Virus record (IMG/VR): IMGVR_UViG_3300014947_000001 | Strand: one strand, 5' to 3' | Source of the DNA: a virus | DNA length: 64,000 nt | Program-made: the position numbers and the translations under genes | The notes under the pieces: generated by a model | Database searches by the model: none | The model's input: the letters and a program-made list of their open reading frames with translations, nothing else | Told to the model about the DNA's origin: nothing | Shown: in pieces, positions 10,211-63,020 of the stretch | How the letters are laid out: every line of letters starts with the position of its first letter | Position numbering within the stretch: position 1 is the first letter of the stretch

Positions 10211-10223
10211 GCACATATTTAAT
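10211..10223 (+). promoter_or_regulatory. Family-2 motif (GCACATATTTAA), putative promoter
   Basis: tttgtaac-N8-gcacatatttaat; ~35 nt upstream of the MCP start. Confidence 0.45.
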
Positions 10224-10259
10224 CCGAAAAAAAGCAACAGTAAAAAGGAGAGAAATTAA

Positions 10260-12062
10260 ATGAAATCATTGGCAAAGAAACTCAGTTTAATCTTTGTAGG
10301 CATCGTCTTAGTCACCTGTATCGTTCTTATCACGTTTGCAGGGTTAGCTTTTAATCGATTAGAGCGGACCTCAGAGGAAATTCTTTATGAGACAACATTG
10401 AATGGATATAAAACAGAGATCAAAAGTGAAGTCCAAGGAGCAGTATCCGTTGTTCGTGGGTTTTATGATTCCTACAGAAATGGAATCATAACAGAAGACA
10501 TCGCAAAGAGTGAAGCAAAAGAAGCGTTACGCAATATGCGGTACGGTGATGATAATTCCGGTTATTTTTGGATTGATGATACAAACTATAACCTCGTTAT
10601 GCATCCAATCCTTTCAGAACAGGAAGGAACGAACCGGAAAGATCTTGAGGACAAAAATGGAGTTAAGATCATTCAGGAAATCATGAAAGTTGCAGATAAT
10701 GGTGGATATAATGAGTTTTATTTCACAAAATCAGACGGCAAAACAGTAGCCCCAAAAGTAGCGTATTCTTTATCGTTTCCAGAATGGAACTGGGTGATCA
10801 CCACTGGCGTATATACAGATGACATTCAATCAATATTGTCTTCTTCCGCAGAGATAACGCGTACAAAAGCAATAAGCCGTAACAGTATCATATTTATGAT
10901 AGCGATTGGTGTTGTTCTTTATATATTAATGTTCTTCTTTTGTTTGTTTATCTGCAAAAAGCTCGTCTTGGTTATTAATCAGGTAAAGGAAAATTTAAAC
11001 AGTATCGCAGACGGTGACCTAACCGGACGGATTGACGGTAAGATCCTAAACAGAAAAGATGAACTCGGAAATATTGTAGTTCACACAAATAAAGCAGTCG
11101 AATCGTTCTGCAATAGCATTGCAACATCAAAACAGACTGCCATTACCGTGAACGAAAACAGTGCTGAAATATCCGGACTCGCAAACAGTGCTCTCGAAGC
11201 GACTGCTCAGGTTGCGGAAGCGATCAGTAATATAGCCGGAGATGCGACAACACAAGCAGGTGTCGTAAGTGATGTTGTGAAAAATATTGATACAATGAAC
11301 TGTAACGTCGAAGAAGTAAGTAATTCCGTTGACGACATCAGTCATTATGCGTGCGAATTAAATGAAGCCAGCGAAGACATGAAAGATAAAATGGATGCAA
11401 TGTCTAAAGGCAGCATGCAGATGTCAACACAGATTGAAAATATTTACAATCAGATTATGAAGACAACAGAGTCTATCAACAAAATGCAAGATGTATTAAA
11501 TGTTATCCAGGATATCGCTTCCCAGACAAACTTATTGAGTTTGAACGCAAGTATTGAAGCAGCAAGAGCCGGTGACAGCGGTCGTGGATTCTCTGTAGTA
11601 GCTTCTAATATTCGGGAATTATCAGAAAATACATCAAAAGAATTAAGTAATATTCGAGATATTATTGGAGAGCTCACTTCAAGTTTCGAAGAATGTAACG
11701 CTTCTATTGATACCGTCGTTGGTACAAATAAACAAAATGCTGAATACACAGGTCTGGTGATCAATTCATTTGATACTGTATTCGATGATATTAAGAATAC
11801 GAATGAAAATGTTTCTCATGTAACCACACTTACAAAACAGATTAGTGACATGATGAACCAGATCGCAGAGGGTATTGAAACCGTACAGCGAGGTGCTGAA
11901 AGTACAGCAGCTGCAACCGAAGAAGTTACGGCTTCCAGTGAAGAATTAAACGCTCTGATGCATAATATTACAGAAAACTGCAGGATCATGACAACCGAAG
12001 CCGAAAGTATGGTTGTGGATCTTAGTAAATTCAAGCTGGAAAAAGAAACAAAAACTGAATAA
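10260..12062 (+). CDS. methyl-accepting chemotaxis protein (Cache-like sensor, HAMP)
   Basis: Two transmembrane segments; Cache-like periplasmic domain; conserved signalling motif [32 protein letters not shown]. Confidence 0.9.
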
Positions 12063-12155
12063 CCATATACTTGATCCAGTGGATTCTCATTAATCGGAAA
12101 CGAAAAATGGGAAACTGCTGGATTTTCTTCATATTTTTGTATACTTTTTGTAAGT

Positions 12156-12189
12156 TTCCTGACGAGGTTTCCGAAAAGTGAGCCTGTTA
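12156..12189 (+). promoter_or_regulatory. Family-1 motif
   Basis: ttcctgacgaggtttccgaaaagtgagcctgtta. Confidence 0.5.
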
Positions 12190-12224
12190 ATAGATGATAA
12201 AACAAAAGAAAGGCAGGACTTACA

Positions 12225-12509
12225 ATGTTATACACAAAGTGTGAAGACTGTGCATACGAAAACGGATGTTCCTTAAAAGAGGATACCGATGATCTTCGCG
12301 GATGTGCGGGTCATAGTAAACGAAAAGAACCGATCACGGCAGAGACGTTTATGGATATTCCTTTAACACCGGAAGAAAGCAGATTTGTAAAAGAAATCGC
12401 CGCAGATCTTTTAATACGAAAAAGAGCGGTTCCGGATGAGTCGGATCTATTGAAAGAGATTCTATATCGAGCAATGCTTGTCTCTGGATCCGAAGTACCG
12501 GAACACTAA
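12225..12509 (+). CDS. hypothetical protein
   Basis: RBS aaaggcaggacttacaATG. Confidence 0.4.
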   Translation: MLYTKCEDCAYENGCSLKEDTDDLRGCAGHSKRKEPITAETFMDIPLTPEESRFVKEIAADLLIRKRAVPDESDLLKEILYRAMLVSGSEVPEH

Positions 12510-12801
12510 AAATAGGAGGACTTTATTTATGACAAATCCATGGAGTAAGATCAAAGAGTTTGTACACGAAAACGACGGAAACACAGATGCAACGTTATCA
12601 TTGTCAATGGATGAATTACAAAATGGTAGGCAGAAAGCCCACGACTTTAGTCGTATGGATGAATGATTACCTCTAAACATTAGAAACAATAATAGAAACC
12701 AATAACAGAAACCAATAACAGAAACAAAATACAGGTCCAGACATAGACCTTTCGCTTGGAGAATAGATACATGGGTATTGAAATCCCATAAGTGATAAAT
12801 C

Positions 12802-12999
12802 TTGAAAACCTCAGATATATCCTGGTCTTCGTGTCAGGTGAAGCTGAGTAAATCTAAAGAATCCCATGGTTTTAACCGTTGGAGTATGTCAAAGTGGTTA
12901 ATTCAGGAACATATGGAAAACAGATCATTGAAACAAGTGATCGAAAAGAATTCCGATGAGAAACGTTTAGATAAGATTAGATATAGGAGACCGTTATGA
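12802..12999 (+). CDS. hypothetical small protein
   Basis: ORF only. Confidence 0.25.
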   Translation: MKTSDISWSSCQVKLSKSKESHGFNRWSMSKWLIQEHMENRSLKQVIEKNSDEKRLDKIRYRRPL

Positions 13000-15888: not shown

Positions 15889-15962
15889 GAGAGCGTCAAC
15901 TCTCTTCTTATCCTTATCCTCATCCTTATTCTCAAAAAATGTATTCCTTTGCAAATTGGTCG

Positions 15963-15974
15963 CCCATATTTAAT
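15963..15974 (+). promoter_or_regulatory. Family-2 motif
   Basis: ctttgcaaattggtcgcccatatttaat. Confidence 0.35.
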
Positions 15975-16330
15975 ACTGAGCAAACAGGTAAGCTGTTTGT
16001 AAAGTAGATTTATTCATATCTGAACTGTAATCCTAAAGGTGTTATAGCAGTTCGCCGGTTTTATTCATTTTCCGGTCCATTGTAGCACGTGAGTACATCT
16101 TATCGACAGGAACACGTGGTTATGAATCTGCATACTGGTTCATAACACATCATAATCATTGCTGACACACCGATGCGAATTGACGCGGGGACCCAATGTA
16201 GAGATGATTATTATGGCACCTCCTTTCGTATACGTCAGGATTTGTATACTAACCTTTGTTTTCTTATACGTTGCATCGTGTTTGGATACACTTCCTGGCG
16301 TTTTTTTGTTCTTGGAGACAGTATGTAAAA

Positions 16331-16340
16331 CCCATATTTA
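16331..16340 (+). promoter_or_regulatory. Family-2-like motif
   Basis: aacccatatttataaac ~40 nt upstream of the 16380 start. Confidence 0.35.
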
Positions 16341-16379
16341 TAAACAACAAATATTTTAAATCATAAAGGAGAAAACAAC

Positions 16380-17378: not shown

Positions 17379-17423
17379 AAACCATCTATCGTACTCGGTA
17401 GGTGGTTTTCTTTATGTTCGTTT
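17379..17423 (+). terminator. rho-independent terminator (G.U-wobble stem, strand-specific)
   Basis: aaaccatctatcg-tact-cggtaggtggttt followed by tctttatgttcgttt. Confidence 0.6.
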
Positions 17424-17434
17424 GCAGATGTGAC

Positions 17435-17448
17435 TTACATATTTAAGG
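17435..17448 (+). promoter_or_regulatory. Family-2 motif
   Basis: tttgcagatgtgacttacatatttaagg. Confidence 0.45.
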
Positions 17449-18036: not shown

Positions 18037-18045
18037 AACAAAGCA

Positions 18046-18088
18046 AACCATCTATCGCCTCCGGTAGGTGGTTTCTTTATGTTCGTTT
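18046..18088 (+). terminator. rho-independent terminator (duplicate of 17379)
   Basis: aaaccatctatcgcctccggtaggtggttt followed by ctttatgttcgttt. Confidence 0.6.
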
Positions 18089-18100
18089 GCAGATGTTGGT

Positions 18101-18111
18101 TCCATATTTAG
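18101..18111 (+). promoter_or_regulatory. Family-2 motif
   Basis: tttgcagatgttggttccatatttagaataacc. Confidence 0.45.
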
Positions 18112-18778: not shown

Positions 18779-18798
18779 GCATTTCTTTGTAATCACTC

Positions 18799-18812
18799 CG
18801 CACATATTTAAT
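18799..18812 (+). promoter_or_regulatory. Family-2 motif
   Basis: tttctttgtaatcactccgcacatatttaatc. Confidence 0.45.
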
Positions 18813-20195: not shown

Positions 20196-20238
20196 TTATA
20201 GACATCATGTTATTTTTCGTATTACTTTGTAATCGTTC

Positions 20239-20252
20239 CGCACATATTTAAC
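20239..20252 (+). promoter_or_regulatory. Family-2 motif
   Basis: ttactttgtaatcgttccgcacatatttaac (near-duplicate of 18781-18812). Confidence 0.4.
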
Positions 20253-22100: not shown

Positions 22101-23201
22101 ATGATGCCGATGCCACCACTTTTAATGAATTCGTTAACAACATCGAGCCGTGTTATGACATCGAATGGTCATCGTCGCCGTTCTCGTTCGTACGAAAATG
22201 ATAGTTCGTACGAAGATGATGATTCATACGAAGATGATGATTCATACGAAGATGATGATCCGGATGAAACACCCATGGATCTAAAAATATTAAACAGACT
22301 TGCTGTGTTTACCGGTAGGATTGCTTCGTTTTTTAATCGTATTTCTTTGTTTTTTACTCGCACATATTTAAACCGTCAGAAAAAACATGACGGAAAGGAA
22401 ACGAATAAAATGAGTAAAGAAATTGAAAACGAAAACAAACAGAACACAGAGCAGCAGGAACCGGAAATTAAGGCTCCAACAATCGAAAACGCAGATGTAG
22501 AAAACACAAGCACGGAGCCAGAGACTTCGGTTCCAAAACAGCCGGAGAGCCAAGATCAGTCAGAAGTAGACGCCGACTACAAGTATACCGAAGAAGATTT
22601 AAGGAAAGCAGGCTGTTCCGATATTCAGGATGCAACCGAAAATGTAGTTATCTCAGATCCGGCTTCAGAGTTTTCTGGAAACAAATCAGAAGACAAAGAA
22701 GAGAAGCCAGAGAAAAAGAAAACCATACGAAAGGTTGCTGCAGCAGTGATCGCAATCATCATTATCATCCTGTTATTACTTCTTAGATCATGTGGCGGCT
22801 GTGGTCCGGCAAACACACCGACGGCACCAAACAGACCAGACATTGAAATTGAAGGCGATAACAAGTGGGACGGAACCATTCAGGACCAGACTGAGACAGC
22901 GATCACAGAGTCTATTGAAATTCCTGAATACTCAAATCTAGGTGTATCAAAAGATAATCCGACGATTCGTCTTGGTAATCCGGAAGCGAACACTGTATAT
23001 CTGCAGTATCAGATCATAAAAGATGATGAAGTTATCTTTGAGACCAAAGCAATAAAACCTGGTAACATGGTAGAAGCGAATATGTATGAGTTGCTGGATG
23101 AAGGAAAAAACGAAGTCACTATTAGCATCAATACATATGATGTTGAAACGGAAACCGCTTGTAATGGAGCAACCCAGGCAGTAACGATTACTGTATATTA
23201 A
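22101..23201 (+). CDS. membrane protein with acidic SYEDDD repeats
   Basis: RBS acaaggaggtcaactgctaatcATG; (SYEDDD)x3; transmembrane segment ~aa 210; a Family-2 motif lies inside at 22359 (alternative start MSKEIENE at 22412). Confidence 0.45.
   Translation: MMPMPPLLMNSLTTSSRVMTSNGHRRRSRSYENDSSYEDDDSYEDDDSYEDDDPDETPMDLKILNRLAVFTGRIASFFNRISLFFTRTYLNRQKKHDGKETNKMSKEIENENKQNTEQQEPEIKAPTIENADVENTSTEPETSVPKQPESQDQSEVDADYKYTEEDLRKAGCSDIQDATENVVISDPASEFSGNKSEDKEEKPEKKKTIRKVAAAVIAIIIIILLLLLRSCGGCGPANTPTAPNRPDIEIEGDNKWDGTIQDQTETAITESIEIPEYSNLGVSKDNPTIRLGNPEANTVYLQYQIIKDDEVIFETKAIKPGNMVEANMYELLDEGKNEVTISINTYDVETETACNGATQAVTITVY
22359..22373 (+). promoter_or_regulatory. Family-2 motif internal to an ORF
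   Basis: tttctttgttttttactcgcacatatttaaacc followed by RBS-like ggaaaggaaacg and ATG at 22412. Confidence 0.35.
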
Positions 23202-24711: not shown

Positions 24712-24764
24712 TGTTTTCATCAATAAAGTGGATTCTTCTTTTCGTTTCCTCTGTCCATGTTCAG

Positions 24765-24777
24765 ACCATATTTATCT
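24765..24777 (+). promoter_or_regulatory. Family-2-like motif
   Basis: gaccatatttatc ~50 nt upstream of the 24829 start. Confidence 0.35.
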
Positions 24778-26502: not shown

Positions 26503-26536
26503 TTCCTGACGAGTTTTCCAAAAAGTGAGCCTTGTA
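26503..26536 (+). promoter_or_regulatory. Family-1 motif
   Basis: ttcctgacgagttttccaaaaagtgagccttgta. Confidence 0.45.
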
Positions 26537-26600
26537 ATATTCGTAAACAACAATAGCCGTCATTCATCAGAGAAAACTCGTTTTAGTTTGCAAGCATGCG

Positions 26601-26613
26601 TACCATATTTAAT
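26601..26613 (+). promoter_or_regulatory. Family-2 motif
   Basis: gcgtaccatatttaatacg. Confidence 0.35.
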
Positions 26614-26635: not shown

Positions 26636-27095
26636 AGACATCATGCGCAATACGAACTGAATACTTCTATTCTTGAGTATGTCAAGCCAGAAATTCGGAA
26701 CACATATGTGTTTCCTATCAGTTCACAATGCGCAAAGAGAATTACGAACAGGATACTTCTATTACATAATTGAAGGTTTGAGTAATGAAAGCTAGTAACT
26801 TTCATTTACTCATGTATGTGATAATACCCTTTATGGGTATCTTACCTGTTCACAAAACTATGGCTGCTGTTCGTTACGGCAGCTTTTCTCTTTTTGTTTA
26901 CAAGAAAACGTATTACTTTGTAAATCGCCCGCACATATTTAACTATGTAGAGGGGATTAAAATAATCGCACAAAGAAACTGGATACTTCTATTGGGTAAA
27001 TCCATACAACTGCTAATTGTATTTTCTTACATTGCAGAATTGCAGTGTAATACCAGTTCATATCAGCGAATAGAGATTACGAAATGGAATACTTC
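26636..27095 (+). repeat. four dispersed ~34-bp direct repeats (GCGCAA.AGA.TTACGAA..GGATACTTCTAT)
   Basis: Copies ending at ~26668, ~26760, ~26990 and ~27095 within an 860-bp non-coding region upstream of 27318. Confidence 0.6.
26931..26943 (+). promoter_or_regulatory. Family-2 motif
   Basis: tactttgtaaatcgcccgcacatatttaac. Confidence 0.4.
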
Positions 27096-30004: not shown

Positions 30005-30034
30005 CCCAAAGTCGTTAATAACACGTTCTTAAAG

Positions 30035-30047
30035 CCCATATTTAACT
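30035..30047 (+). promoter_or_regulatory. Family-2 motif
   Basis: aaagcccatatttaactg ~45 nt upstream of the 30093 start. Confidence 0.4.
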
Positions 30048-32618: not shown

Positions 32619-32633
32619 ACTTTAAATATGGGT
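32619..32633 (-). promoter_or_regulatory. Family-2 motif (minus strand)
   Basis: Plus-strand ctttaaatatggg = cccatatttaaag on the minus strand, ~45 nt upstream of the 32574 start. Confidence 0.4.
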
Positions 32634-32816
32634 TTCAGCGCACACGAATGCCGGAAACGAATCATTCGTCAACATATACAAAAATGCATGAATATACGAA
32701 AACAGGCTTGTGCAAAACAGCGAACAGTAATAAAATGTTGAATTGTTGGAGAAAACCTAAAACCGATTCCTGTTTTCTACTGTCTTTTAAGTAGACGGAT
32801 AGAAAGGAGGGATTGC

Positions 32817-32972
32817 ATGGATGAACACAGAGAGGAAATCATTCATGAGGAACCATGCCGGGAGATGTTATGGTTTCAGGAGCTGGCACAACAAGACCAG
32901 AACGGATATACAGTAAACAAAACGAAAGTGAGAAAGATATTAGAGTACATATTACGGAGGATGAAAAATGAA
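32817..32972 (+). CDS. small protein (51 aa) translationally coupled to the sigma factor
   Basis: RBS gaaaggagggattgcATG; its stop overlaps the sigma start (ATGAATAG); absent from ORF track. Confidence 0.35.
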
Positions 32973-34929
32973 TAGCTACACCGAAGCAGTACAAAAAGCA
33001 ATGAAAGGAGACCAGGAAGCGTATACGTACCTGTATGAGAAAACGTATACGAAATGTTTTTACCTGGCGAGGAAGTTTTTAAACAGCGAGCACACAGCAC
33101 AGGATATCGTTCAGGATGCCTATGTGAAGGCTTTTAAGTCTCTGGATACCTTAGAAGACCCGGAGAAGTTTCAGTCATGGATCGGAACGATTGTGTCGAA
33201 CCTTGCCAAAAACGAACTGAAACGAAGAAAGGTAACCTTGTTCTCTGAAACAGAAAACGAAGACGGACAGGATATCAGTGATACCTTTGTGGATGACCGT
33301 GTGTCTGTTCAGCCGGAAGTCGTTATGGATCAGAATGAGACAACGAGACTGATGAAAGAGATCATTGATACTTTGACAGATGAACAGCGCATCTGTGTCA
33401 CAATGTTCTATATGGAACAGATGTCTGTAAAAGAAATGGCGTCCGTGCTTGAAGTATCAGAGAACACCGTTAAGAGCCGCCTGAATTATGGCAGACAAAA
33501 GATCAAAGACAAAGTATTAGACCTCGAAAAGAAAGGTACCAAGCTTTATGGTCTTGCTCCGATTCCATTCTTCCTGTTGCTGCTTAAAGAGGACGTCAAA
33601 GCGGCACAGGCAACACAGATTCCGTCAATGTCGGCTGCAGTGTCTTCAGCAACCAAAGCAGTTGCAACCGCAGCAGGAACCGGAAGTACCGTTGCCGGAA
33701 CAACCGCAGCCACAGTAGCAGCAGGCGCCGGAAAGGGAATCGCAACAAAGGTGATCGCAGGCATTGTCGCCGGAACGCTTGTTATCGGAGGTGGAGCAGC
33801 AGCGATTGTGCATATGCAGGGGCAGAGCGGAAATCATTATAAACTTGCAAAATCAATTTCAGATTTACCTGACTGGGCGTATGATAGTACAAATGGATTA
33901 AAATATATAAGCATTCAAGATTATAAATATCCAATTAGTTTAATTTTAGATTATGATAAGGATATGGTGGAGCGTGGCGAGGTTAAGTATTATTCCAATC
34001 CAGGTCATACAGGATATGAAGGAATGAAATGTGATCCAAAAGTTTGGTATTTTGGAGAATATAATGGACGTATCTATTATGTGGATAGAGCTAATACAGA
34101 GAATCTACGTTATCATTTATACCGTGTGCCAAAAGCTTCTGATTATGATTTATATTTAGAAGATTCAGATACTTATATGGCTTCTATATTTAATGATCTT
34201 AATGCAAGAAGTTCAGATAGTTTTTTATTTACATATGATGAAGATGAACATAATCAATATGTTGCGATTGAGGATATGATCAATTCTGACGGCTATAGTT
34301 TTGATGAATGGTACTGCATTACAGAAGATGACCTTATTCCGGATGCTGTAGATGCATACAATGATTGGGTTGCAAATGGGGAGGCAGAGATGAATGCCAT
34401 ATATGCATCCCATATCACTGTAACAGAATCAGTCCCGGAAACAGAAACAGAAACCGAAGAAGTAGTGGAAGAAGTAACTGAGGAACCGACAGAAACGGCT
34501 CCGGAAGAAACAGAAGTACAGGAAGCAGAAGGGGAGACCGTTGATCAGAGCGGAAATATTCCGGTTCCGAACTATACGCCAACTGGCAATTTCTGGAATA
34601 CACCTGGTTCTTACTCAAGCAATGATGGACAGACATTATCATTAAGCATGTTTACGGAAGACGGTGGAGTAGAAGGATGGTGCGGAAACATAAATGGCGG
34701 ATCAGTAGGTTCTCTGGAAGTCTTCAATTATGGTGATAAGATCTATTATCTGAAGAAAGCAGACAGTTCCTATTCGAATTTCACAGACAGCGGATATGCA
34801 TTTACTTTGGAACCGTCCGGAGAAACACTTGACATTTATGGGGAAACCTATGATATAATACTTTTGAAGTTGTACTATAATGGTGTACTTCAAGGAGAGT
34901 ACTATGAAACAGACCTCTATCAATCATAA
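32968..34929 (+). CDS. ECF-type sigma-70 family protein fused to a transmembrane segment and large C-terminal extracytoplasmic domain
   Basis: Region 2 (DIVQDAYVKAF..FQSWIGTIVSNL); region 4 (EQRICVTMFYMEQMSVKEMASVLEVSENTVKSRL); Ala/Gly/Thr-rich transmembrane segment ~aa 215-265; ~380-aa C-terminal domain. Confidence 0.75.
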   Translation: MNSYTEAVQKAMKGDQEAYTYLYEKTYTKCFYLARKFLNSEHTAQDIVQDAYVKAFKSLDTLEDPEKFQSWIGTIVSNLAKNELKRRKVTLFSETENEDGQDISDTFVDDRVSVQPEVVMDQNETTRLMKEIIDTLTDEQRICVTMFYMEQMSVKEMASVLEVSENTVKSRLNYGRQKIKDKVLDLEKKGTKLYGLAPIPFFLLLLKEDVKAAQATQIPSMSAAVSSATKAVATAAGTGSTVAGTTAATVAAGAGKGIATKVIAGIVAGTLVIGGGAAAIVHMQGQSGNHYKLAKSISDLPDWAYDSTNGLKYISIQDYKYPISLILDYDKDMVERGEVKYYSNPGHTGYEGMKCDPKVWYFGEYNGRIYYVDRANTENLRYHLYRVPKASDYDLYLEDSDTYMASIFNDLNARSSDSFLFTYDEDEHNQYVAIEDMINSDGYSFDEWYCITEDDLIPDAVDAYNDWVANGEAEMNAIYASHITVTESVPETETETEEVVEEVTEEPTETAPEETEVQEAEGETVDQSGNIPVPNYTPTGNFWNTPGSYSSNDGQTLSLSMFTEDGGVEGWCGNINGGSVGSLEVFNYGDKIYYLKKADSSYSNFTDSGYAFTLEPSGETLDIYGETYDIILLKLYYNGVLQGEYYETDLYQS

Positions 34930-35294
34930 GAAATGCTGAGGAGTATACAGACTCTACGGAAGCGAATCCGGCTTCCAAATTAATTGTTGACAGGTTCAAA
35001 AATGCCAAATTCGTTGGCAGGATTGTTTCCTTGTATATGGAGATAATGAGAGAAATCTCTAATCAAGCACACTCCGGATCTTTAGATCCGCGAGTGCTTG
35101 ATTGACAACGAAGGGTTCTCTCGAAGCAAAGACCATTGAACTACTAACGTTCAATCGTATAAAGCTTCGGGGTTAGAACCCAGAGTTACGATATCTCCAA
35201 GTGTGTTTATTTGTTACGAAAGAGAGCTTACCTATATGGTAGGCTCTTTTTCGTTTCCCATACTTTGTTTCCATATATATCGTTTCCTTTGTAT

Positions 35295-35313
35295 CTTTGT
35301 AACCTATATTTAG
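35295..35313 (+). promoter_or_regulatory. Family-2-like motif
   Basis: ctttgtaacctatatttag. Confidence 0.35.
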
Positions 35314-37306: not shown

Positions 37307-37345
37307 TAACCACTTGCCTGTTGCGGTAGGTGGTTCTTTTTTTTG
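37307..37345 (+). terminator. rho-independent terminator (G.U-wobble stem)
   Basis: aaccacttgcc-tgtt-gcggtaggtggtt followed by cttttttttg. Confidence 0.55.
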
Positions 37346-37358
37346 TTTCGTCTTTCTC

Positions 37359-37374
37359 GAACCATATTTAATAC
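37359..37374 (+). promoter_or_regulatory. Family-2 motif
   Basis: tctcgaaccatatttaatac. Confidence 0.4.
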
Positions 37375-39182: not shown

Positions 39183-39194
39183 CTAAATATGTGC
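39183..39194 (-). promoter_or_regulatory. Family-2 motif (minus strand)
   Basis: Plus-strand ctaaatatgtgc = gcacatatttag on the minus strand, upstream of the BRO gene. Confidence 0.4.
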
Positions 39195-39261
39195 TCTTTG
39201 TTATCGAGACAAATGAACATTTTTCAATACTATTCGTTGCGGATTTCTTTGTTTCATCCTC

Positions 39262-39276
39262 GTCCATATTTAATCT
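39262..39276 (+). promoter_or_regulatory. Family-2 motif
   Basis: cgtccatatttaatc ~35 nt upstream of the 39312 start. Confidence 0.4.
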
Positions 39277-42937: not shown

Positions 42938-43003
42938 TCAGCGAAAAAGAGAAGTCTACTCTTATGCTTCTCTTTTTTTTTGTTATTCCTTTGTTCAGAA
43001 CTC

Positions 43004-43017
43004 ACACATATTTAACT
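43004..43017 (+). promoter_or_regulatory. Family-2 motif
   Basis: ctcacacatatttaactg ~50 nt upstream of the 43066 start. Confidence 0.4.
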
Positions 43018-45140: not shown

Positions 45141-45152
45141 TTAAATATGGAT
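45141..45152 (-). promoter_or_regulatory. Family-2 motif (minus strand)
   Basis: Plus-strand cttaaatatgga = tccatatttaag on the minus strand, upstream of the 45125 start. Confidence 0.35.
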
Positions 45153-45206
45153 GACGAGAGATCAAAGAAAAACAGCCCTGTTTCCAGAGCTGTCGTGTTT
45201 CCTATT

Positions 45207-52756: not shown

Positions 52757-52768
52757 CTAAATATGTAC
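52757..52768 (-). promoter_or_regulatory. Family-2 motif (minus strand)
   Basis: Plus-strand ctaaatatgtac = gtacatatttag on the minus strand. Confidence 0.3.
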
Positions 52769-52773
52769 AAGTT

Positions 52774-53265
52774 TCAAGCAAAGAAAAACAGACCCTCATA
52801 AGAAGATCTGTTTTCTGTTTTACGGCTTAGTTTGTTCCTGTGCTGCCGAATCCCTCGATTTTCACCAACTAACTGTTCCTTTTCATGGAATATAATTCGT
52901 GGCTGATTCTCAATAATGCGGAACTGACAGATACGGTCATTTACATGGATTTCGGTATCGCGTGTTGCGTATACTGGCATCATCCATTCATCATCGTTTC
53001 CACAATAAGAGTTATCGATGATTCCGATACTATTTGTCTGGATAAGTCCCCATTTCTTGAATGTTGAGCTACGCGGTGCAACATATGCTTCGAAACCGTA
53101 AGGGATTTTCATGGCAATTCCAAGTGGGATCAATGCAAAGTCGCCTTTCTTCAGTTTCATTTCTTTGGCGGCTCTAAGGTCGATCCAATCTGACTTGTCA
53201 TCAATATAAGTCAATTTTTCAATATCCGGATTCAAATACCGGACGTCAATGTCTGCATGTGTCAT
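52774..53265 (-). CDS. dut: dUTP diphosphatase (motif V out of frame)
   Basis: Motifs I DWIDLRA, II PRSS, III GIIDNSYCGND and IV RICQFRI in frame; motif V GFGSTG is encoded in another frame after a C3/G3 tract (~52840). Confidence 0.75.
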   Translation of the reverse strand: MTHADIDVRYLNPDIEKLTYIDDKSDWIDLRAAKEMKLKKGDFALIPLGIAMKIPYGFEAYVAPRSSTFKKWGLIQTNSIGIIDNSYCGNDDEWMMPVYATRDTEIHVNDRICQFRIIENQPRIIFHEKEQLVGENRGIRQHRNKLSRKTENRSSYEGLFFFA

Positions 53266-53423: not shown

Positions 53424-53438
53424 CTTAAATATGTAATG
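53424..53438 (-). promoter_or_regulatory. Family-2 motif (minus strand)
   Basis: Plus-strand cttaaatatgtaatg. Confidence 0.35.
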
Positions 53439-53546
53439 AATGGGCTTAACCTAGAAGCCATGATGCTTGAACTACTAACGTTTAAGTGTATTACAGCTTC
53501 GTTTCCAAAAACAAAGACAGGTTATTACTCCTGCCTCTGTTTCATT

Positions 53547-54267: not shown

Positions 54268-54280
54268 TCTTAAATATGTG
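54268..54280 (-). promoter_or_regulatory. Family-2 motif (minus strand)
   Basis: Plus-strand cttaaatatgtgc = gcacatatttaag on the minus strand, ~40 nt upstream of the 54227 start. Confidence 0.4.
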
Positions 54281-54458
54281 CCCGATATTAATGGAGAAAC
54301 CGGTGTTCTATATGATAAGTTGGGCACAAAAATACCGGATGCTAACACACTCATACGGAAACAAAATATCAGGGAACAAAAAGTATTGCTAAACTGATTA
54401 ATCGATTTACTTTCTTTTTGTTCCCATAAATATTCGTTTCCGATAATTCTATCGTTTA

Positions 54459-55157: not shown

Positions 55158-55196
55158 ATATAATCTCCTTTCGTTTCCTCTGACTTAACTATTCAT

Positions 55197-56016: not shown

Positions 56017-56055
56017 AGATAATCTCCTTTCATTTCCTCTGATTTAACTATTCAT

Positions 56056-56089
56056 AATAAGGCTCAAAATACTGAAAACTCGTCAGGAA
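56056..56089 (-). promoter_or_regulatory. Family-1 motif (minus strand)
   Basis: Plus-strand aataaggctcaaaatactgaaaactcgtcaggaa. Confidence 0.5.
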
Positions 56090-56190
56090 ACAATAAATTA
56101 GGGAGCAAAAAGTCGGTAAACTAATTAATTGGTTTACTCAACTCTTGCTCCCTAAACATCTGTTTCCGAAATAATCAGTAACTGAATTCG

Positions 56191-56919: not shown

Positions 56920-56951
56920 ATATGTATTCTCCCTTCGTTTTTACTTGTTAA

Positions 56952-56985
56952 CAATAAGGCTCAATATATCGAAAACTCGTCAGAA
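56952..56985 (-). promoter_or_regulatory. Family-1 motif (minus strand)
   Basis: Plus-strand caataaggctcaatatatcgaaaactcgtcagaaaa. Confidence 0.5.
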
Positions 56986-57092
56986 AAATACAAGAAAAAG
57001 GAATGGAAATGTATTCCGTTTCAGATGTTTTTCTTGTCTTCATCATAATCATAATCCTCTCCCTTATATCCTTTTCCTGCTTTTCGATCTTC

Positions 57093-57839: not shown

Positions 57840-58796
57840 TTACTGGCTTAACTGGAACAATGTATTGATCTTGTCGCTTAGCATTGTCTCTGGCAGTTTT
57901 CCATCCCAGCCTTTGACATAGTAATACTGAACGAGTTCTGGATGCGCATTTAACTGATCTCCGACTGCTGACATGATTGCAGCATCTTTCTTTCCCTGAT
58001 ACTCAGCAGAATCAGCCTGGATCTGAGCGACCTCTGCGTCTGCTTTTGCGGCTACGATTGCAGAGTCAGCTTCTGCCTGTGCTGCCGTTACTTTACGTTT
58101 TGCTTCTGCTTCTGCTTCCAGGTTTAATCTTTCCTGCTCTGTCTTTGCTGTTAATTTGTTCTGGACTGCTGTTACTTTCGCTTCTGCTGCGCTTGTGAAT
58201 TCGTCACTGAAATCGATATTTTCGATTGCGGTTGCAGTTAATCTAATGTTATAACTTGCAAGATCATCAATCAAATCGGTTTGAATTAAAGCAGCAACCT
58301 TATTACGGTCTTCAATCAATTCATTTGCAGTGTATTTTGCAAATCCGGCTTTCACTGCTTCCTGTACACGTGGAACAATAACTGTGTCATAGTAGTTAGA
58401 ACCGATTGTACGATAAATATCCTGTGCATTCTGCTGGCTAATCTGATAGTTGACGGTGTATGTAAGTGTTACTTCCTGAATATCTTTTGAGAAGCAGGTC
58501 ATATCTACTTGTGCTTTTTGTACACGGTTATCCATTTTTACAACCTTTTGCCAAGGCTCTACAAAAGCTATACCTGCATCTAATGTCTGCGATTCGACTC
58601 GTCCGAATGTAGTTAAAATTCCGGTATATCCAGTCGGTACGGTTCGGACACATCCGAAACCACAGAGTATAAGTCCGAATACAGCAAGAAACTGTCTCTT
58701 TCTAAAATGCATCTCTACTGCATCGTCTGTAAACTCAATACCCAAAACGAAGAATAATACTATAGTTGCAATAATGCCTAGAACGAATAAAAACAT
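57840..58796 (-). CDS. SPFH/band-7 (stomatin/prohibitin/HflKC-like) membrane protein
   Basis: N-terminal transmembrane segment; SPFH core; Ala/Glu-rich coiled-coil (EAEAEAKRKVTAAQAEADSAIVAAKADAEVAQ). Confidence 0.85.
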   Translation of the reverse strand: MFLFVLGIIATIVLFFVLGIEFTDDAVEMHFRKRQFLAVFGLILCGFGCVRTVPTGYTGILTTFGRVESQTLDAGIAFVEPWQKVVKMDNRVQKAQVDMTCFSKDIQEVTLTYTVNYQISQQNAQDIYRTIGSNYYDTVIVPRVQEAVKAGFAKYTANELIEDRNKVAALIQTDLIDDLASYNIRLTATAIENIDFSDEFTSAAEAKVTAVQNKLTAKTEQERLNLEAEAEAKRKVTAAQAEADSAIVAAKADAEVAQIQADSAEYQGKKDAAIMSAVGDQLNAHPELVQYYYVKGWDGKLPETMLSDKINTLFQLSQ

Positions 58797-58842: not shown

Positions 58843-58876
58843 GATAAGGCTCACTTTTTGAAAACCTCGTCAGGAA
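58843..58876 (-). promoter_or_regulatory. Family-1 motif (minus strand)
   Basis: Plus-strand gataaggctcactttttgaaaacctcgtcaggaa. Confidence 0.5.
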
Positions 58877-58915
58877 ATTGCAAAAAAAATCAAATTTGTT
58901 TCGTAATACGGTTCG

Positions 58916-58927
58916 AGCACATATTTA
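58916..58927 (+). promoter_or_regulatory. Family-2 motif
   Basis: cgagcacatatttagaataacc, ~40 nt upstream of the 58966 start; divergent from the 58843 Family-1 motif. Confidence 0.4.
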
Positions 58928-58965
58928 GAATAACCACTAATCGCATATTAAAGGAGGAATTGAAT

Positions 58966-59454
58966 ATGAGAGAAATACTTAAAACAGGAACATTGCAGGA
59001 AGTAATCGATACATTAGAGTCCGAAATTGAGGAATACGATATGAATTCTATCAAAGCGGACTTAACTAGTAACGATACATTTCTGCTTTGTGATCCAGTA
59101 GTCTTTATTCCTGATGTGAATCTTTTTGCCGTTTGCATGGAATACTGTCTTGGAGATGCCGACGGAATGGCTGACTGGTGTGGAACCTTTATATTCCGCA
59201 TCAAAAACGTATCCGGGAACCCTACTATTACAGATTATGGTTACGAATCCGACGATATCATGACAACATTGTATAATTACACACATGTTGACACAGATAA
59301 GTTGGCGTCCATGTCTGCAGGTCTTTTTACCGGAGACCTTGATCAGATCGCAGCTCTTTTGGAAAACGCAATCCTGGGAATCGAACTTCCAGATCCAGAT
59401 GCCGTCTCCGAAGTAACGACTGCTTTTGAAACGGCGCCCGCAATAGCATTCTAA
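58966..59454 (+). CDS. hypothetical protein
   Basis: RBS aaaggaggaattgaatATG. Confidence 0.5.
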   Translation: MREILKTGTLQEVIDTLESEIEEYDMNSIKADLTSNDTFLLCDPVVFIPDVNLFAVCMEYCLGDADGMADWCGTFIFRIKNVSGNPTITDYGYESDDIMTTLYNYTHVDTDKLASMSAGLFTGDLDQIAALLENAILGIELPDPDAVSEVTTAFETAPAIAF

Positions 59455-59509: not shown

Positions 59510-60043
59510 TCAAGATGTCTTATCGAATTGATAGCAATCGTATTCTATAATACATCCGATCTCATTGGTTTTGCATAGAATTGAAAGTCCACGTTCATAA
59601 CGTGCATCGCATCCATCTCTGTGTACGCAATGCCTGCAGTTAATAAGACATGCTTCCAGAAATTCGTCCGGAAATGTTTCGAGATCCTTCCATTCAGACT
59701 TCGACGCATATTGTTTTACTAATTTGTAACCTTTTGCGAGTTCACAATGTACGATATCCTGGTTCATCTTCGGAGTAACACAATACAGATTTCCTTCTCC
59801 GTCATCCCAGATTGACATCTTTTTGAAATGATACTTGAAGAACCGATGAATTTTGTTTACAAGGAAGCAAATGATACTTAGAACCCAACCAACCGGACCG
59901 ACAGCAAGAAGTCCTGTAACTGTGTCATTATCAAAAGCGATGTACAAAATAGTGGATACCAATGAACACAGTAGCCAAATAATAAGAACAAGTTTTATAG
60001 ATACCATAATATAATCTCCTTTTCTCTTATGACTTATTATCAT
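59510..60043 (-). CDS. membrane protein with Cys-rich C-terminal domain
   Basis: N-terminal transmembrane segments; CRHCVHRDGC...C. Confidence 0.45.
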   Translation of the reverse strand: MIISHKRKGDYIMVSIKLVLIIWLLCSLVSTILYIAFDNDTVTGLLAVGPVGWVLSIICFLVNKIHRFFKYHFKKMSIWDDGEGNLYCVTPKMNQDIVHCELAKGYKLVKQYASKSEWKDLETFPDEFLEACLINCRHCVHRDGCDARYERGLSILCKTNEIGCIIEYDCYQFDKTS

Positions 60044-60067
60044 AAATATGGAATTCCTAGTATTGCA

Positions 60068-60463
60068 TTAATTATCAGAAACATTCACATGCAATTTACT
60101 TTCATCCAGATACAAAAATCCCCATTCGTATCGTATTGTTTCAATATGTGTTGGTTTCTCGTTATCGACGACAGTTGGTAACCCACGTGTTGAAAACGAT
60201 TCTCCGGACTCATAATCAATATGTGTTATCTCGGATGTTATCGGTTTTCGAAAGGTTGTAAACAAAACAGCGATAACTGATAGAGAAATCAAAGATCCGA
60301 TACTCCAAAGACCGACCAAAACGGTTAACATTTTTGTTAGTTTTTGTTTTAATGACAAATCATCATGTTTACTATTCATTTTTCGAACTAAATAACTGAT
60401 TCTCGGAATAAACAAAATGAATATTACAGCTAAAACGAGAACCATAAATGCGATTACGTTCAT
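60068..60463 (-). CDS. single-pass membrane protein, tandem paralog
   Basis: ...THIETIRYEWGFLYLDESKLHVNVSDN; paralog of 60570-61004. Confidence 0.5.
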   Translation of the reverse strand: MNVIAFMVLVLAVIFILFIPRISYLVRKMNSKHDDLSLKQKLTKMLTVLVGLWSIGSLISLSVIAVLFTTFRKPITSEITHIDYESGESFSTRGLPTVVDNEKPTHIETIRYEWGFLYLDESKLHVNVSDN

Positions 60464-61297: not shown

Positions 61298-61562
61298 GGT
61301 ATACGCTACCTGGAAATAGCCAGGGTCTATAACTCCTAATTCACGCCATGAGCTGCTGCTTGTGGTATACGCTACCTGGAAATAACCAGGGTCTATAACA
61401 TACATCTTTATTCGAAAACATGAGAAATAGGTATACGCAACACGGAAACAACCAGGGTCTATAACTAATGTTTTCAATATCCTGGGATATGCACAACCCG
61501 GGAATAACCAGGATCTATAACATTCTTTATAACGGAAGTGGTGTGCGCTATTTGGAAATAAC
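61298..61562 (+). CRISPR. orphan CRISPR-like mini-array (two intact 36-bp repeats, two 30-nt spacers, then three degenerate repeats)
   Basis: R1 ggtatacgctacctggaaatagccagggtctataac (61298-61333); R2 at 61364-61399 (1 mismatch); spacers 61334-61363 and 61400-61429; R3-R5 progressively degenerate with ~18-nt spacers; internal hairpin CCTGG-aaatag-CCAGG. Confidence 0.5.
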
Positions 61563-61584
61563 CTTTCTTTCTTTTGTTGTTATC

Positions 61585-61596
61585 TTAAATATGGGT
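61585..61596 (-). promoter_or_regulatory. Family-2 motif (minus strand) facing the array
   Basis: Plus-strand cttaaatatggg = cccatatttaag on the minus strand. Confidence 0.35.
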
Positions 61597-61715
61597 GAGT
61601 AATTTACAAAGGAATACAATTTGATGATAAGGAGAAGGATGAGGCTAAGGGAAGTTTGCATCATCACAAAACAAATAAAAGATCCCACGCAAAAACAAGC
61701 AGGATCTCTATATTC

Positions 61716-62930
61716 TTAAACTAATTCTGATTCTGTGACCGAATGGATTACGATCTTCTTTTTCTTACATCCACCGATCAACCATGCAGTGTACTGTTTA
61801 ATTACCTGGTCTCGGATGCTACTATCTAACATTCTACATCCGTAAACTCCATTCGCAAACTCATGTAATTGTGTTCGCATATCTGCATCCAGTTCGATCG
61901 GTAACTGATAGGCTAATCTCAGCGTTTCCAGTGTTTTGTCAATAATCTTGTCGACTGCCTCTTCAGATAACTTATGATAGTTGACAATCAAAGGGAAACG
62001 ACCAATCATTTCGTAACTTGCCCCCATTTTAATCATATCTTCTCTTGTGATCTCATCGAACATATCATTATCCTGGGTTCTGGCTCCGAATCCTAAATTA
62101 TTCTTTGCCGCATTCTTTTTCTGCTCTCTGGATTCATTAAACGAACCTAAACCAATAAACATCGTATTGGATGTATCAATATAATATCCAGTTGGCTGAC
62201 CATTCAAAATAAACGGAACTTCACGACCTTCAATAATAGTTAATAACTGATTTTGGACCGCAGCAGATGTGTTTGCTCCTTCTGCAAATGAAGGAATCAG
62301 TTTCTTGTCGAATTCATCCATAAATACGATTCCATAACCATTTGTGCCATTCTCCATGAGCTCATCTACTAGTATCGAACTTCCGGCACCAACAATGCCT
62401 TCTTCCGTAATCACAGATACATCTACTTGTGAGATTGTAAGCTCTGGAATCTCTGTTTTAAAATAATTGCGGAGTGACCGGTATGTTTCTGTTTTTCCGC
62501 AGCCAGATGGAGCAGCCATAAGCATATTGTTATTCACTGGGTTCCCAAGAGCAACGTTTGTGAGATAGTTATATACGTTTGCAAGTATTAAATCGAGATT
62601 GTCCTGTCCTATAACATCTTTGTGAATTGTGTTTCGAAACTCTGTAAACGGAACACGACCAAGCCATTCCTTAATGCTGAGTTTTAAATCCTCAATCTGT
62701 TCTGCTGTGTAATCATCTTCATCCATCATCATATTTGGATCTATATCGCCAGACATTAGCTGAATTAAAAACTGCTGTGGCTGTTCGGAAACCATTTCTT
62801 TCGGATCCTGTTCTTTTGTTTTTTCGGTTGGTTTCTTTTCTTTCGGATCCTTTTTTGTCGGTTTCTTGGCTTCGTTTGTTTCTACTTCTGTTAATTTCTT
62901 ATTTGTGAGTGATTCGTTTTTCGGTTCCAT
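61716..62930 (-). CDS. ClpX-like AAA+ unfoldase lacking the zinc-binding N-domain
   Basis: Walker A APSGCGKT, Walker B GIVFMDEFDKK, IGF-like loop NLGFGA, ClpX C-domain EDMIKMGASYEMIGRFPLIVNYHKLSEEAVDKII; Lys/Glu-rich N-terminus. Confidence 0.8.
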   Translation of the reverse strand: MEPKNESLTNKKLTEVETNEAKKPTKKDPKEKKPTEKTKEQDPKEMVSEQPQQFLIQLMSGDIDPNMMMDEDDYTAEQIEDLKLSIKEWLGRVPFTEFRNTIHKDVIGQDNLDLILANVYNYLTNVALGNPVNNNMLMAAPSGCGKTETYRSLRNYFKTEIPELTISQVDVSVITEEGIVGAGSSILVDELMENGTNGYGIVFMDEFDKKLIPSFAEGANTSAAVQNQLLTIIEGREVPFILNGQPTGYYIDTSNTMFIGLGSFNESREQKKNAAKNNLGFGARTQDNDMFDEITREDMIKMGASYEMIGRFPLIVNYHKLSEEAVDKIIDKTLETLRLAYQLPIELDADMRTQLHEFANGVYGCRMLDSSIRDQVIKQYTAWLIGGCKKKKIVIHSVTESELV

Positions 62931-62957
62931 AAAAATACCTCTCTTTCACTTAGCTAT

Positions 62958-62968
62958 CCTAAATATGG
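62958..62968 (-). promoter_or_regulatory. Family-2 motif (minus strand)
   Basis: Plus-strand cctaaatatgg, upstream of the clpX-like gene. Confidence 0.4.
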
Positions 62969-63006
62969 TTATCTTGTCTGCAGACAAATGACACGCATTC
63001 TCTCAA

Positions 63007-63020
63007 CCCATATTTAGAAC
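63007..63020 (+). promoter_or_regulatory. Family-2 motif
   Basis: cccatatttagaac, divergent from 62958. Confidence 0.4.

Follow-up and report, generated by a model that had tools for sequence, protein, structure and literature searches.

The 64,000-nucleotide (nt) stretch of DNA filed as IMG/VR virus record IMGVR_UViG_3300014947_000001, referred to in its full length as the window, carries a repeated short sequence, CATATTTA, upstream of many of its genes, and the question raised by this locus is what that sequence does and which protein reads it. A first-pass annotation had described the motif (Family 2, which stands beside a second recurrent motif, Family 1) as a promoter class that might depend on the sigma factor encoded at 32968. 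The reading favored here, with a probability of roughly one half, is that Family 2 represents the general promoter of the giant gut element to which the window belongs, and that it would be recognized by a SigA-like sigma factor of the element, encoded beyond the right end of the window and acting on the host core RNA polymerase. The more basic part of this proposal, that Family 2 is a promoter, is very likely to be correct, judging from the anatomy and placement of the motif.

Counted on both strands, the window contains 34 exact copies of CATATTTA, where 4.95 are expected (standard deviation 2.5 and maximum 13 in 100 dinucleotide shuffles). A rough gene map, drawn from open reading frame (ORF) length and ribosome-site quality, comprises 77 genes, 80% coding DNA and 12,853 intergenic bases; 27 of the copies fall in the intergenic portion, compared with 1.08 expected from a first-order Markov model of intergenic DNA (maximum of 5 in 300 simulations). 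The sequence is the top-ranking 8-mer of intergenic DNA, the median count for 8-mers of the same composition being 2. Given this excess, the motif is not a generic AT-rich feature that is equally common in coding sequence, a possibility that the first-pass annotation had itself raised. A position matrix scan yields 36 hits at or above 8 bits, versus 3-6 in Markov controls, and adds one intergenic variant, TATATTTA at 35305, while a copy at 26934 falls in a doubtful ORF yet looks genuine. Including these two, there are ~29 functional-looking sites, in keeping with the ~27 copies counted earlier (individual copies are designated below by the lowest coordinate of their core).

All intergenic copies face the next gene, the one apparent exception, 52758(-), having been scored against a doubtful ORF of 39 amino acids (aa). 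Most end 36-55 nt upstream of a start codon with a strong Shine-Dalgarno site, close to the ~35-50 nt in gene orientation described earlier, and 20 end 30-55 nt before an ATG with an AAGGAGG-type ribosome site. Terminator-like hairpins are present in the window at about twice the expected frequency, and several lie directly upstream of Family 2 copies (45171-45194, 52784-52815, 17379-17408, 18045-18074 and 18740-18768), so that no room remains for any other promoter. In some cases, including 45194-45171(-) and 52815-52784(-), the U-tail of the terminator itself serves as the upstream box of the motif (TTTCTTTG). In a typical unit, a terminator is thus followed by Family 2, then by a short leader that includes the ribosome site, and finally by a gene. 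Sites resembling the sigma-70 consensus, by comparison, are not enriched in the window (47 versus 62, 56 versus 61 and 63 versus 68 expected). It is the combination of intergenic position, orientation toward genes, tight distance to the ribosome site and start codon, and frequent location after a terminator that argues for a promoter.

The genes downstream of Family 2, checked against Pfam, are those listed before: LRR_5 genes (17438, 18103 and 24767), a PIF1 helicase gene (39265), a Bro-N gene (39184), an SSB-like gene at 43007 (a faint match), a ClpX-like AAA gene at 62960 and the first MFxTEEL paralogue at 54271, as well as the dUTPase gene, dut, which is reached from 53426 by way of a small ORF. 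The "MCP" gene served by 10214 encodes a methyl-accepting chemotaxis protein, not a capsid protein. Both divergent arrangements reported previously are present, with Family 1 at 58873(-) opposed to Family 2 at 58920(+) and 62960(-) opposed to 63009(+), and two additional Family 2 pairs, 10148(-)/10214(+) and 39184(-)/39265(+), are arranged in the same way. Five copies (15965, 20243, 26604, 26934 and 61586) head stretches that contain no credible ORF.

The full motif can be written as TTnSTTTG-N11-CM-CATATTTA-R(gATAAC). Among the window copies, the consensus reads TTnCTTTG(Y)AA, eight variable bases, g-c-M, CATATTTA, and A or G, and its fixed-register upstream box agrees with the arrangement TTTGYAA-N8-GCMCATATTTAA that had been noted first. 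With the C of the core numbered 0, the 28 window copies scored show T at -21 in 24 cases, T at -20 in 26 and G at -14 in 19. Pooling the window with related loci gives 142 copies, of which 70 independent ones remain once near-duplicates are removed. In this set T occupies -21 (62/70) and -20 (65/70), C or G occupies -18, T fills -17 to -15, and G is found at -14 (40/70); on the core side, C-2 is present in 46/70 and A or C at -1 in 65/70. The core is followed by a purine (64/70) and then, by preference, g-A-T-A-A-C-A-A-A. A constant 13 nt in register separates G-14 from the core, and the median distance from core end to start codon is 40 nt (interquartile range 37-43).

These features revise one claim of the first-pass annotation, which had held the geometry to be unlike that of sigma-70 promoters. 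Two boxes at fixed spacing are what the sigma-70 family recognizes, and TTnSTT, a 17-nt spacer and TATTTA constitute one valid reading of Family 2 within the customary spacer range of 16-18 bp; the placement is also that of this family, all intergenic copies being co-oriented with room left for a leader and its ribosome site. Family 2 therefore departs from TTGACA/TATAAT in sequence rather than in geometry. The boxes can be set in three registers. Register A, with TTnSTT at -21 to -16, a 17-nt spacer and TATTTA at +2 to +7, employs the best-conserved upstream bases, but its hexamer ends in A. Register B places TTGyAA at -16 to -11 and, after a 16-nt spacer, TA(A/G)GAT at +6 to +11. Register C takes CATATT at 0 to +5 as the -10 element and a purine at +12 (63/70 copies) as the start site. 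Registers B and C retain the A at position 2 and the T at position 6 of the hexamer, which TATTTA in register A does not. The purines at +12 and the A at +13 are candidate transcription start sites on the basis of this pattern. In one bona fide copy, L011 14564(-), which is also present in L033, the ribosome site begins 6 nt after the core and the ATG lies 21 nt after it, a short leader that argues against register B. Fixing the register from the shortest leaders in general yields this single informative copy and is not decisive.

A sporulation sigma factor is a poor match to the same anatomy. Sporulation promoters have a CATA-type -10 element, combined with a -35 element of AC (SigK), ATA-type (SigE) or GnATA (SigG). 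The Family 2 core has a CATA-type start, but TTnSTTTG corresponds to no SigE, SigK or SigG -35 element, and CATATTTA exactly fits neither CATAnnnTA nor CATnnTA.

Similar arrangements can be seen in the relatives of the element. In L003 and L005 (35% GC), whose extracytoplasmic function (ECF)-type sigma factors are 80% and 65% identical to that of the window, respectively, the same core precedes orthologous genes. Alignments were made of the intergenic regions in front of the SSB-like and OGFr_N genes and of the one that separates the Bro-N and helicase genes. In these, TTCCTTTG and CATATTTA match exactly and the length of the gap between them is kept, whereas spacer and flanks have diverged; the relative in question shares 65% identity with this element in the ECF-type sigma and 60% in the SigA-like sigma. 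The same cores also adjoin SigA-like sigma homologues of 60%, 56% and 51% identity. Across 478 kb of further contigs, fetched by means of the Family 1 pattern, there are 423 cores, or 8.85 per 10 kb, compared with 1.95 per 10 kb for Family 1, and arrays of pentapeptide-repeat paralogues in relatives display one Family 2 copy per gene. Family 2 is thus a general upstream signal of the element, present approximately once per gene, and not the mark of a special class. A 15-base Family 2 pattern used against IMG/VR returns mostly chance occurrences among the matches listed and is informative only after filtering for motif density. No description of the consensus was found in the literature, where searches with motif strings gave chance matches only, and none of the transcription of this element.

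Screening the ORFs of related loci identifies a protein of 341 aa with Pfam sigma regions 1.2, 2, 3 and 4, the closest solved relatives of which are SigA of B. subtilis and C. difficile (E = 1.6e-54). Its gene is present on five IMG/VR contigs, and one of these includes a 97% identical C-terminal portion of the window's ECF sigma gene. The locus overlaps window positions 62129-63753, again at 97% identity, which places the gene ~8.4-9.4 kb past the right end; in window orientation it is on the minus strand. Compared with bacterial RpoD/SigA, the protein lacks region 1.1 and keeps the region 4.2 helix TRERVRQIE and the region 2.4 segment WWIKQxITR. Changes specific to its clade are PVRMY to AMTDY in region 1.2, a two-residue insertion and a change of LIQEGN to VVMEGN in region 2.1-2.2, and the replacement of a 20-residue stretch at the 2.4/3.0 junction by YNNNNMIRIPIHANEGLHRY. 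It has specific relatives only at 60, 56 and 51% identity, followed by bacterial RpoD at ~40%. In all four lineages the gene has a guanylate kinase gene as its neighbor or ParA and ParB genes nearby, and upstream of it stand Family 1 and, ~50-80 nt farther on, Family 2.

The motif, its position, orientation and conservation, both sigma genes with their neighborhoods, and the separate promoter-like sequence of the ECF sigma operon are direct observations. From these we infer that transcription would start at Family 2, where its -10 register might lie, and which sigma factor would serve which family. The assignment of Family 2 to the SigA-like sigma is suggested by the dominance of the motif throughout the element and by the fact that this is the only general-type sigma found. 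In the proposed mechanism, host core polymerase carrying the SigA-like sigma would recognize Family 2 and start RNA synthesis 5-11 nt after the core, giving a leader of ~30 nt with a strong ribosome site. Through the Family 2 copy closest to its own gene, the sigma factor would boost its production. Family 1 would belong to a second class served by a different holoenzyme, with the ECF sigma running a side circuit. The changed regions 3.0 and 1.2 are expected to face the DNA upstream of or within the -10 zone, where the invariant block lies, which makes the model physically plausible.

Several points weigh against this proposal. About a third of the window copies have no recognizable upstream box, and the promoter status of Family 2 is itself deduced from anatomy. 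That the SigA-like sigma is paired with Family 2 and not with Family 1 is suggested by abundance and parsimony only. Both families are unchanged in relatives whose ECF sigma is 65% identical and whose SigA-like sigmas are 60, 56 and 51% identical, so that co-variation does not link either family to a particular sigma. The -35 and -12 residues of the SigA-like sigma, whose base contacts are presumably those described for sigma-70, are canonical and predict a TTGACA/TATAAT-like target, which Family 2 matches loosely; even this loose match uses the register TTGyAA-16-TARGAT, opposed by the short leader of L011 14564(-). Finally, the element has been sampled in part, and it could encode another sigma factor or polymerase.

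It is possible, although doubtful, that the host polymerase reads Family 2 with the host SigA, either directly through TTGyAA-16-TA(A/G)GAT as weak -35 and -10 elements or with the help of an element-encoded activator that binds the CATATT block located in the spacer, in which case the SigA-like sigma would read Family 1 or something else. Register B does offer T-12, A-11, A-8 and T-7 (T6 and A7 are invariant, A10 is found in 54/70 and T11 in 42/70), together with a TTG ~16 nt upstream, and copy 18103 passes the sigma-70 scan in that register as TTTGCA-17-TAGAAT. Also, the sigma gene of the element needs prior expression, and Family 1 and Family 2 are the only candidates upstream of it. However, 18103 (18082..18111) is the sole copy of 29 to pass the 9-of-12 consensus scan, and the ribosome site of L011 14564(-) is too near the core for register B. 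SigA promoters are degenerate, and a near-invariant block of 8-11 bp at ~29 window sites and at hundreds in relatives would be unexpected for them. The motif also does not exceed chance in two other sequences, a chromosomal Lachnospiraceae-like locus and a contig of a metagenome-assembled genome (MAG), with 3 and 2 cores in 20 and 18 kb, respectively, none of them promoter-like.

Reading by a further sigma factor or polymerase, encoded in element DNA that lies outside the sample, likewise appears unlikely. The contigs of the element reach 171-332 kb and are sampled in part, and two private promoter families suggest two private readers, although only one non-ECF sigma was found. Against this, Pfam detects no further sigma among 184 non-redundant ORFs (71 from the window and 113 related), and none emerges from ~800 kb of related, partly redundant DNA probed with RpoD/SigA fragments, the SigA-like sigma and an ECF profile, searches that very divergent sigmas would escape. 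The sole match to a polymerase beta-like gene was rejected as a gene of the element, since it resides on an unrelated contig of 31% GC whose Family 1 match is a chance occurrence inside coding sequence.

Dependence of Family 2 on the ECF-type sigma at 32968, as the first-pass annotation suggested, is very improbable. This protein is the sole sigma encoded inside the window, and its homologues co-occur with Family 2 in close relatives. It contains sigma regions 2 and 4, a predicted transmembrane helix and a C-terminal part predicted to be an outside domain; homologues of its sigma domain in Lachnospiraceae (50-60% identity) carry varied C-terminal domains, including LRR_5, SH3 and Big_2, and one sits among ordinary chromosomal genes. 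A transmembrane segment and a large outside domain fit a small, signal-gated regulon and not hundreds of promoters. Moreover, in six loci of 44-100% protein identity the operon of small ORF and sigma gene has AAAACC-N16-TGTC(A/T)Tata(a/g)g in front of it, namely in the window, L003, L005/L006, L135 (49%), L007/L008 (44%) and the chromosomal L136, where the motif is a looser variant (AAACC, 17-nt spacer) located 164 nt upstream. The same sequence also stands before a neighboring gene in L135 and in L136, and the window contains exactly one site, compared with an estimated ~0.03 expected. ECF sigmas usually transcribe their own operon, from promoters with an AAC core at -35 and a CGT/GTC core at -10, ~16-17 nt apart. 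Based on this habit and on the style of its boxes, AAAACC-N16-TGTCWT is probably what the membrane-anchored ECF sigma recognizes, and the regulon of this sigma in the window would then comprise its own operon. Family 2 has neither an AAC-type -35 nor a CGT/GTC-type -10, and the autoregulatory place is taken in all six loci by the ECF-style motif. No copy of Family 1 or Family 2 occurs upstream of 32817/32968, and both families are absent from L007, L135 and L136, which encode homologues of the ECF sigma and include a chromosomal locus. The sigma at 32968 is thus probably not the reader of Family 2, and it is probably the wrong target for the deletion once suggested as a test.

An alternative in which Family 2 is no promoter but an operator for a DNA-binding regulator, or a leader element acting in RNA (for processing or as a signal for translation), is scarcely credible: its distance to the start codon is unusually tight, the conserved bases after the core (gATAACAAA) could act in RNA, and palindromes overlap some copies (for example TTGTCTGCAGACAA between 62960 and 63009), but many copies directly follow a terminator with no other promoter-like sequence before the gene, the two boxes are fixed in spacing and not palindromic, units without an ORF are headed at 15965, 20243, 26604, 26934 and 61586, and there is no match to an Rfam family.

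Returning to the SigA-like sigma as the reader of Family 2, a more far-reaching version of this proposal can be put forward tentatively. The element would possess a nearly closed transcription system, in which a primary-like sigma without region 1.1 keeps the canonical readout of -35 and -12 and uses rebuilt regions 3.0 and 1.2 to read an invariant specifier block at or just upstream of -10. Two classes on a similar scaffold might then be defined by their specifiers, CATATT(TA) for Family 2 and GAGCC(T) for Family 1. Conceivably, the two families would head almost every gene, the non-coding units and a CRISPR-like array, and their tandem arrangement before the sigma gene would act as a switch; this too is offered as a speculation.

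Family 1 has the form tTTcCTGACGAG.TTTCcaaAaa.TGAGCCTTATt in the window, where there are 17 copies. As had been stated, it coexists with Family 2 in one element, and it is equally conserved; farther out among the relatives, TGACGA-N14-GAGCCTTAT is the only constant part. All of IMG/VR contains no more than 60 stretches with the exact pattern, nearly all from this element family, three being evident chance matches of differing GC content. Five MFxTEEL paralogues are encoded at 53547-57776 (-), the first of which uses Family 2 (54271), and three others, with starts at 55157, 56016 and 56919, use Family 1 (55227, 56086 and 56983), so that paralogous genes have been placed under different promoter families. 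Two other interpretations were considered and rejected. The resemblance of CTGACGAG to CUGAUGAG suggested a hammerhead ribozyme, which has no Rfam match here and is at odds with the promoter-like anatomy, and a TTTGCAA box, also found before some Family 1 copies, is too inconsistent to be a separate element shared by both families.

The coordinates of both families and of the sigma genes are collected in Table 1.

Table 1. Positions of Family 2, Family 1 and the sigma factor genes with their putative promoters (window coordinates unless a related locus is named).
Feature	Location	Strand	Remarks
Family 2	1585..1614 (core 1606-1613)	+	30 nt before TnpB-type transposase ATG at 1643; upstream box unclear
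Family 2	10147..10176 (core 10148-10155)	-	serves 68-aa ORF 9901-10107; divergent with 10214
Family 2	10193..10222 (core 10214-10221)	+	serves methyl-accepting chemotaxis protein gene 10260-12062
Family 2	15944..15973	+	strong upstream box; then ~400 nt without credible ORF
Family 2	16312..16341	+	serves 16380-17366 (DUF5688); weak upstream box
Family 2	17417..17446	+	serves LRR_5 gene 17485-18036; right after terminator hairpin 17379-17408
Family 2	18082..18111	+	serves LRR_5 gene 18148-18732; after terminator 18045-18074
Family 2	18782..18811	+	serves 18882-20195; after terminator 18740-18768
Family 2	20222..20251	+	strong upstream box; then ~415 nt without credible ORF
Family 2	22342..22371	+	serves 22410-23201
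Family 2	24746..24775	+	serves LRR_5 gene 24829-26406
Family 2	26583..26612	+	heads ~270-nt unit ending at terminator 26862-26893; Family 1 98 nt upstream
Family 2	26913..26942	+	heads second, paralogous unit ending at terminator 27232-27263
Family 2	30016..30045	+	serves 30093-31883; upstream box unclear
Family 2	32622..32651	-	serves ATLF-like gene 31954-32574
Family 2 variant TATATTTA	35284..35313 (core 35305-35312)	+	one mismatch; good upstream box; serves 35363-35872
Family 2	37342..37371	+	after terminator 37308-37335; serves ORF ending at 38003
Family 2	39183..39212	-	serves Bro-N gene 38287-39141; divergent with 39265
Family 2	39244..39273	+	serves PIF1 helicase gene (to 40841); orthologous copy kept in L005
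Family 2	42986..43015	+	serves SSB-like gene 43066-43923; boxes and 13-nt gap kept in L005 and L010, spacer differs
Family 2	45141..45170	-	serves OGFr_N gene 44367-45101; upstream box is U-tail of terminator 45194-45171
Family 2	52757..52786	-	upstream box is tail of terminator 52815-52784; no clear ORF before Family 1 at 52586(-)
Family 2	53425..53454	-	serves 45-aa ORF and dUTPase gene 52774-53265
Family 2	54270..54299	-	serves first MFxTEEL paralogue 53547-54227
Family 2	58899..58928	+	serves 58966-59454; divergent from Family 1 at 58844-58873(-)
Family 2	60042..60071	-	serves 59510-60007; upstream box unclear
Family 2	61585..61614	-	best-scoring upstream box; faces CRISPR-like array of 36-nt repeats, 61298-61575
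Family 2	62959..62988	-	serves ClpX-like AAA gene 61716-62930; divergent with 63009
Family 2	62988..63017	+	serves 63059-63496
Family 1 starts	980, 4096, 4986, 5140, 6836, 7742, 9149, 12159, 21203, 26506, 41959	+	
Family 1 starts	52586, 55227, 56086, 56983, 58873, 61078	-	
Family 1 (CTGACGAG-N13-GAGCCTTGT)	26506..26535	+	tandem, upstream of Family 2 at 26604
Family 1	58844..58873	-	serves Band_7 gene 57840-58796; divergently paired with Family 2 at 58920
ECF-type promoter candidate AAAACC-N16-TGTCTT	32759..32786	+	before operon of small ORF and ECF sigma; third motif, single window copy
52-aa ORF	32817..32975	+	overlaps start of ECF sigma gene; small upstream ORF also called in L003, L005, L135, L136 and L008
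ECF-type sigma gene	32968..34929	+	regions 2 and 4 in aa 1-182; predicted transmembrane helix ~aa 258-282; C-terminal domain of ~370 aa
AAAACC-N16-TGTC(A/T)T sites outside the window	L003 9792; L005 4680; L135 1728, 79; L136 8188, 11056; L007 6299		
SigA-like sigma gene	L139 10001-11023 (IMG/VR contig 3300045988_180302)		adjoins guanylate kinase and ParA/ParB-like genes

Some of the copies lie next to unusual sequences. Directly downstream of 61586(-) is a CRISPR-like mini-array on the minus strand (61298-61575), in which a 36-nt repeat, GTTATAGACCCTGGCTATTTCCAGGTAGCGTATACC, is present 4-5 times at a period of 66 nt; the most degenerate repeats are those nearest the Family 2 copy. There are no cas genes in the window, only a TnpB-type gene at 1643-2773. 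Between 26406 and 27318, Family 1 (26506) and Family 2 (26604 and 26934) head two paralogous units of ~270-300 nt, each with two ACGAAnnGGATACTTCTAT copies (26653 and 26745; 26975 and 27081) and with matching terminators at the ends, an arrangement kept in L003 and L005. These units look non-coding, although gene callers put an ORF of 143-154 aa there. Likewise, 15973-16380 and 20251-20665, the latter with a 42-nt direct repeat, are possible non-coding RNAs, with no Rfam match. The palindrome TTGTCTGCAGACAA at 62968-63008 covers the upstream-box positions of both 62960(-) and 63009(+) and is a possible operator. The integrase gene at 40865-41974 (-) carries neither private family and has the best host-type site in the scanned regions, TTGCCA-17-TATAAT at 41953-41925 (11/12), which makes it the clearest candidate for expression by the host's own holoenzyme.

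The window has a GC content of 38% and strong ribosome sites of the Gram-positive type. Pfam analysis of all 71 window ORFs finds no phage structural genes; the products recognized include a chemotaxis receptor, five BspA-type LRR proteins, ClpP, the ClpX-like ATPase, an integrase, PIF1 helicase, Bro-N, dUTPase, a TnpB transposase, Band_7, an ATLF-like protease and one sigma factor. Related loci additionally encode ParA-, ParB- and ParM-like proteins, Mob_Pre, NrdD, RtcB, a topoisomerase, thymidylate synthase, PhoH and NAD-salvage enzymes. Metagenomic contigs of 89-289 kb encode proteins identical to those of the window, and contigs of up to 332 kb encode close relatives; all come from human-gut assemblies, and element proteins are recorded in hundreds to more than 1000 assembly blocks. 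In pieces of 24 kb, the window has no megablast match among reference phages and PLSDB plasmids, and protein searches against phages give remote matches only. A scan of a genome collection with the ECF sigma retrieves a single MAG contig of 1 kb. Neither Rfam families nor transfer RNA genes were found in the window, and no terminase is seen in the sampled DNA of the element. Capsid-type Pfam hits among the loci fetched by the Family 1 pattern are not attributed to the element. The parent DNA is a giant extrachromosomal element, either a megaplasmid or a jumbo phage, and its host is probably a gut Firmicute of the Lachnospiraceae. In a distant relative (L201, 480-1200), the interval that separates the partition genes from the SigA-like sigma gene contains at least 10 palindromic boxes of the type TTGTCACGTGACAA, which are possible iterons or a centromere.

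This giant resident of the human gut is very common and uncultured. If Family 2 is its main promoter, a one-line rule would mark its transcription units, including the non-coding units and the CRISPR-like array, and its regulation would reduce to a compact circuit of one SigA-like sigma, two private families and a separate, signal-gated ECF sigma. A near-invariant 30-nt promoter together with its sigma factor would also constitute an orthogonal expression part for Lachnospiraceae and related Firmicutes that are hard to engineer. Should the nearly closed system be real, it would represent a natural orthogonal pair of a housekeeping-type sigma and its promoter on a plasmid-like element.

Comparisons can be made with several known systems. 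Bacillus phage SPO1 encodes gp28 and gp33/34 as sigma factors for its middle and late promoters, and resembles the present case as a mobile element of Firmicutes with its own sigma-70-family protein, conserved -35/-10-type boxes unlike those of the host and more than one promoter class. The SPO1 sigmas, however, are small and highly diverged, whereas the candidate here is a full primary-like protein (regions 1.2-4.2) with canonical recognition helices; the box sequences differ, and the present element is possibly a plasmid. At T4 late promoters, gp55 reads the 8-bp TATAAATA at -10 without a -35 element. The likeness resides in a near-invariant AT-rich 8-mer at the -10 position and in the box-less third of window copies, the difference in the roughly two thirds of Family 2 copies whose upstream box is in position. 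The searches run, which included no gp55 probe, turned up no small, divergent sigma of the gp55 type. The jumbo phages phiKZ and AR9 are also very large elements with a private promoter signature throughout the genome, but they have multisubunit polymerases of their own, and none was found in the element DNA sampled here.

Extended -10 promoters (TGnTATAAT), which are read by sigma region 3.0, are common in Clostridia (PMC7438776). Like these, Family 2 has extra conserved bases upstream of or overlapping -10 and a weak dependence on -35, and it is in region 3.0 precisely that the candidate sigma differs from SigA; the extra bases are C-M-C-A-T-A and not TG, and are far more invariant than in host promoter sets. 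Clostridial mobile elements encode the group 5 sigmas TcdR, UviA, BotR and TetR, and unassigned sigmas are present on conjugative transposons of C. difficile (PMC7438776). These too are sigmas on clostridial mobile DNA that direct the genes of their own element, but each controls few promoters, whereas Family 2 heads approximately one gene per kb and the sigma considered here is primary-like and not of group 4/5. Hodor megaplasmids of the gut have a GC content of 44.6-47.1% and encode Rep_3, ParA, ParB, ParM, several sortases and a type IV secretion system, and the paper that describes them makes no mention of sigma factors or promoters (PMC12934698). They share with the present element their filing in viral databases, the ParA/ParB/ParM-like genes, TnpB and the absence of a terminase from the sampled DNA, and differ in GC content (38% here); sortase and secretion genes are not seen in the partial sample of the element. 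Overall, a mobile element with its own sigma factor and private promoters is of a kind already known, and the traits that set this one apart are the primary-like sigma, the extremely invariant core and the two private families in tandem before the sigma gene.

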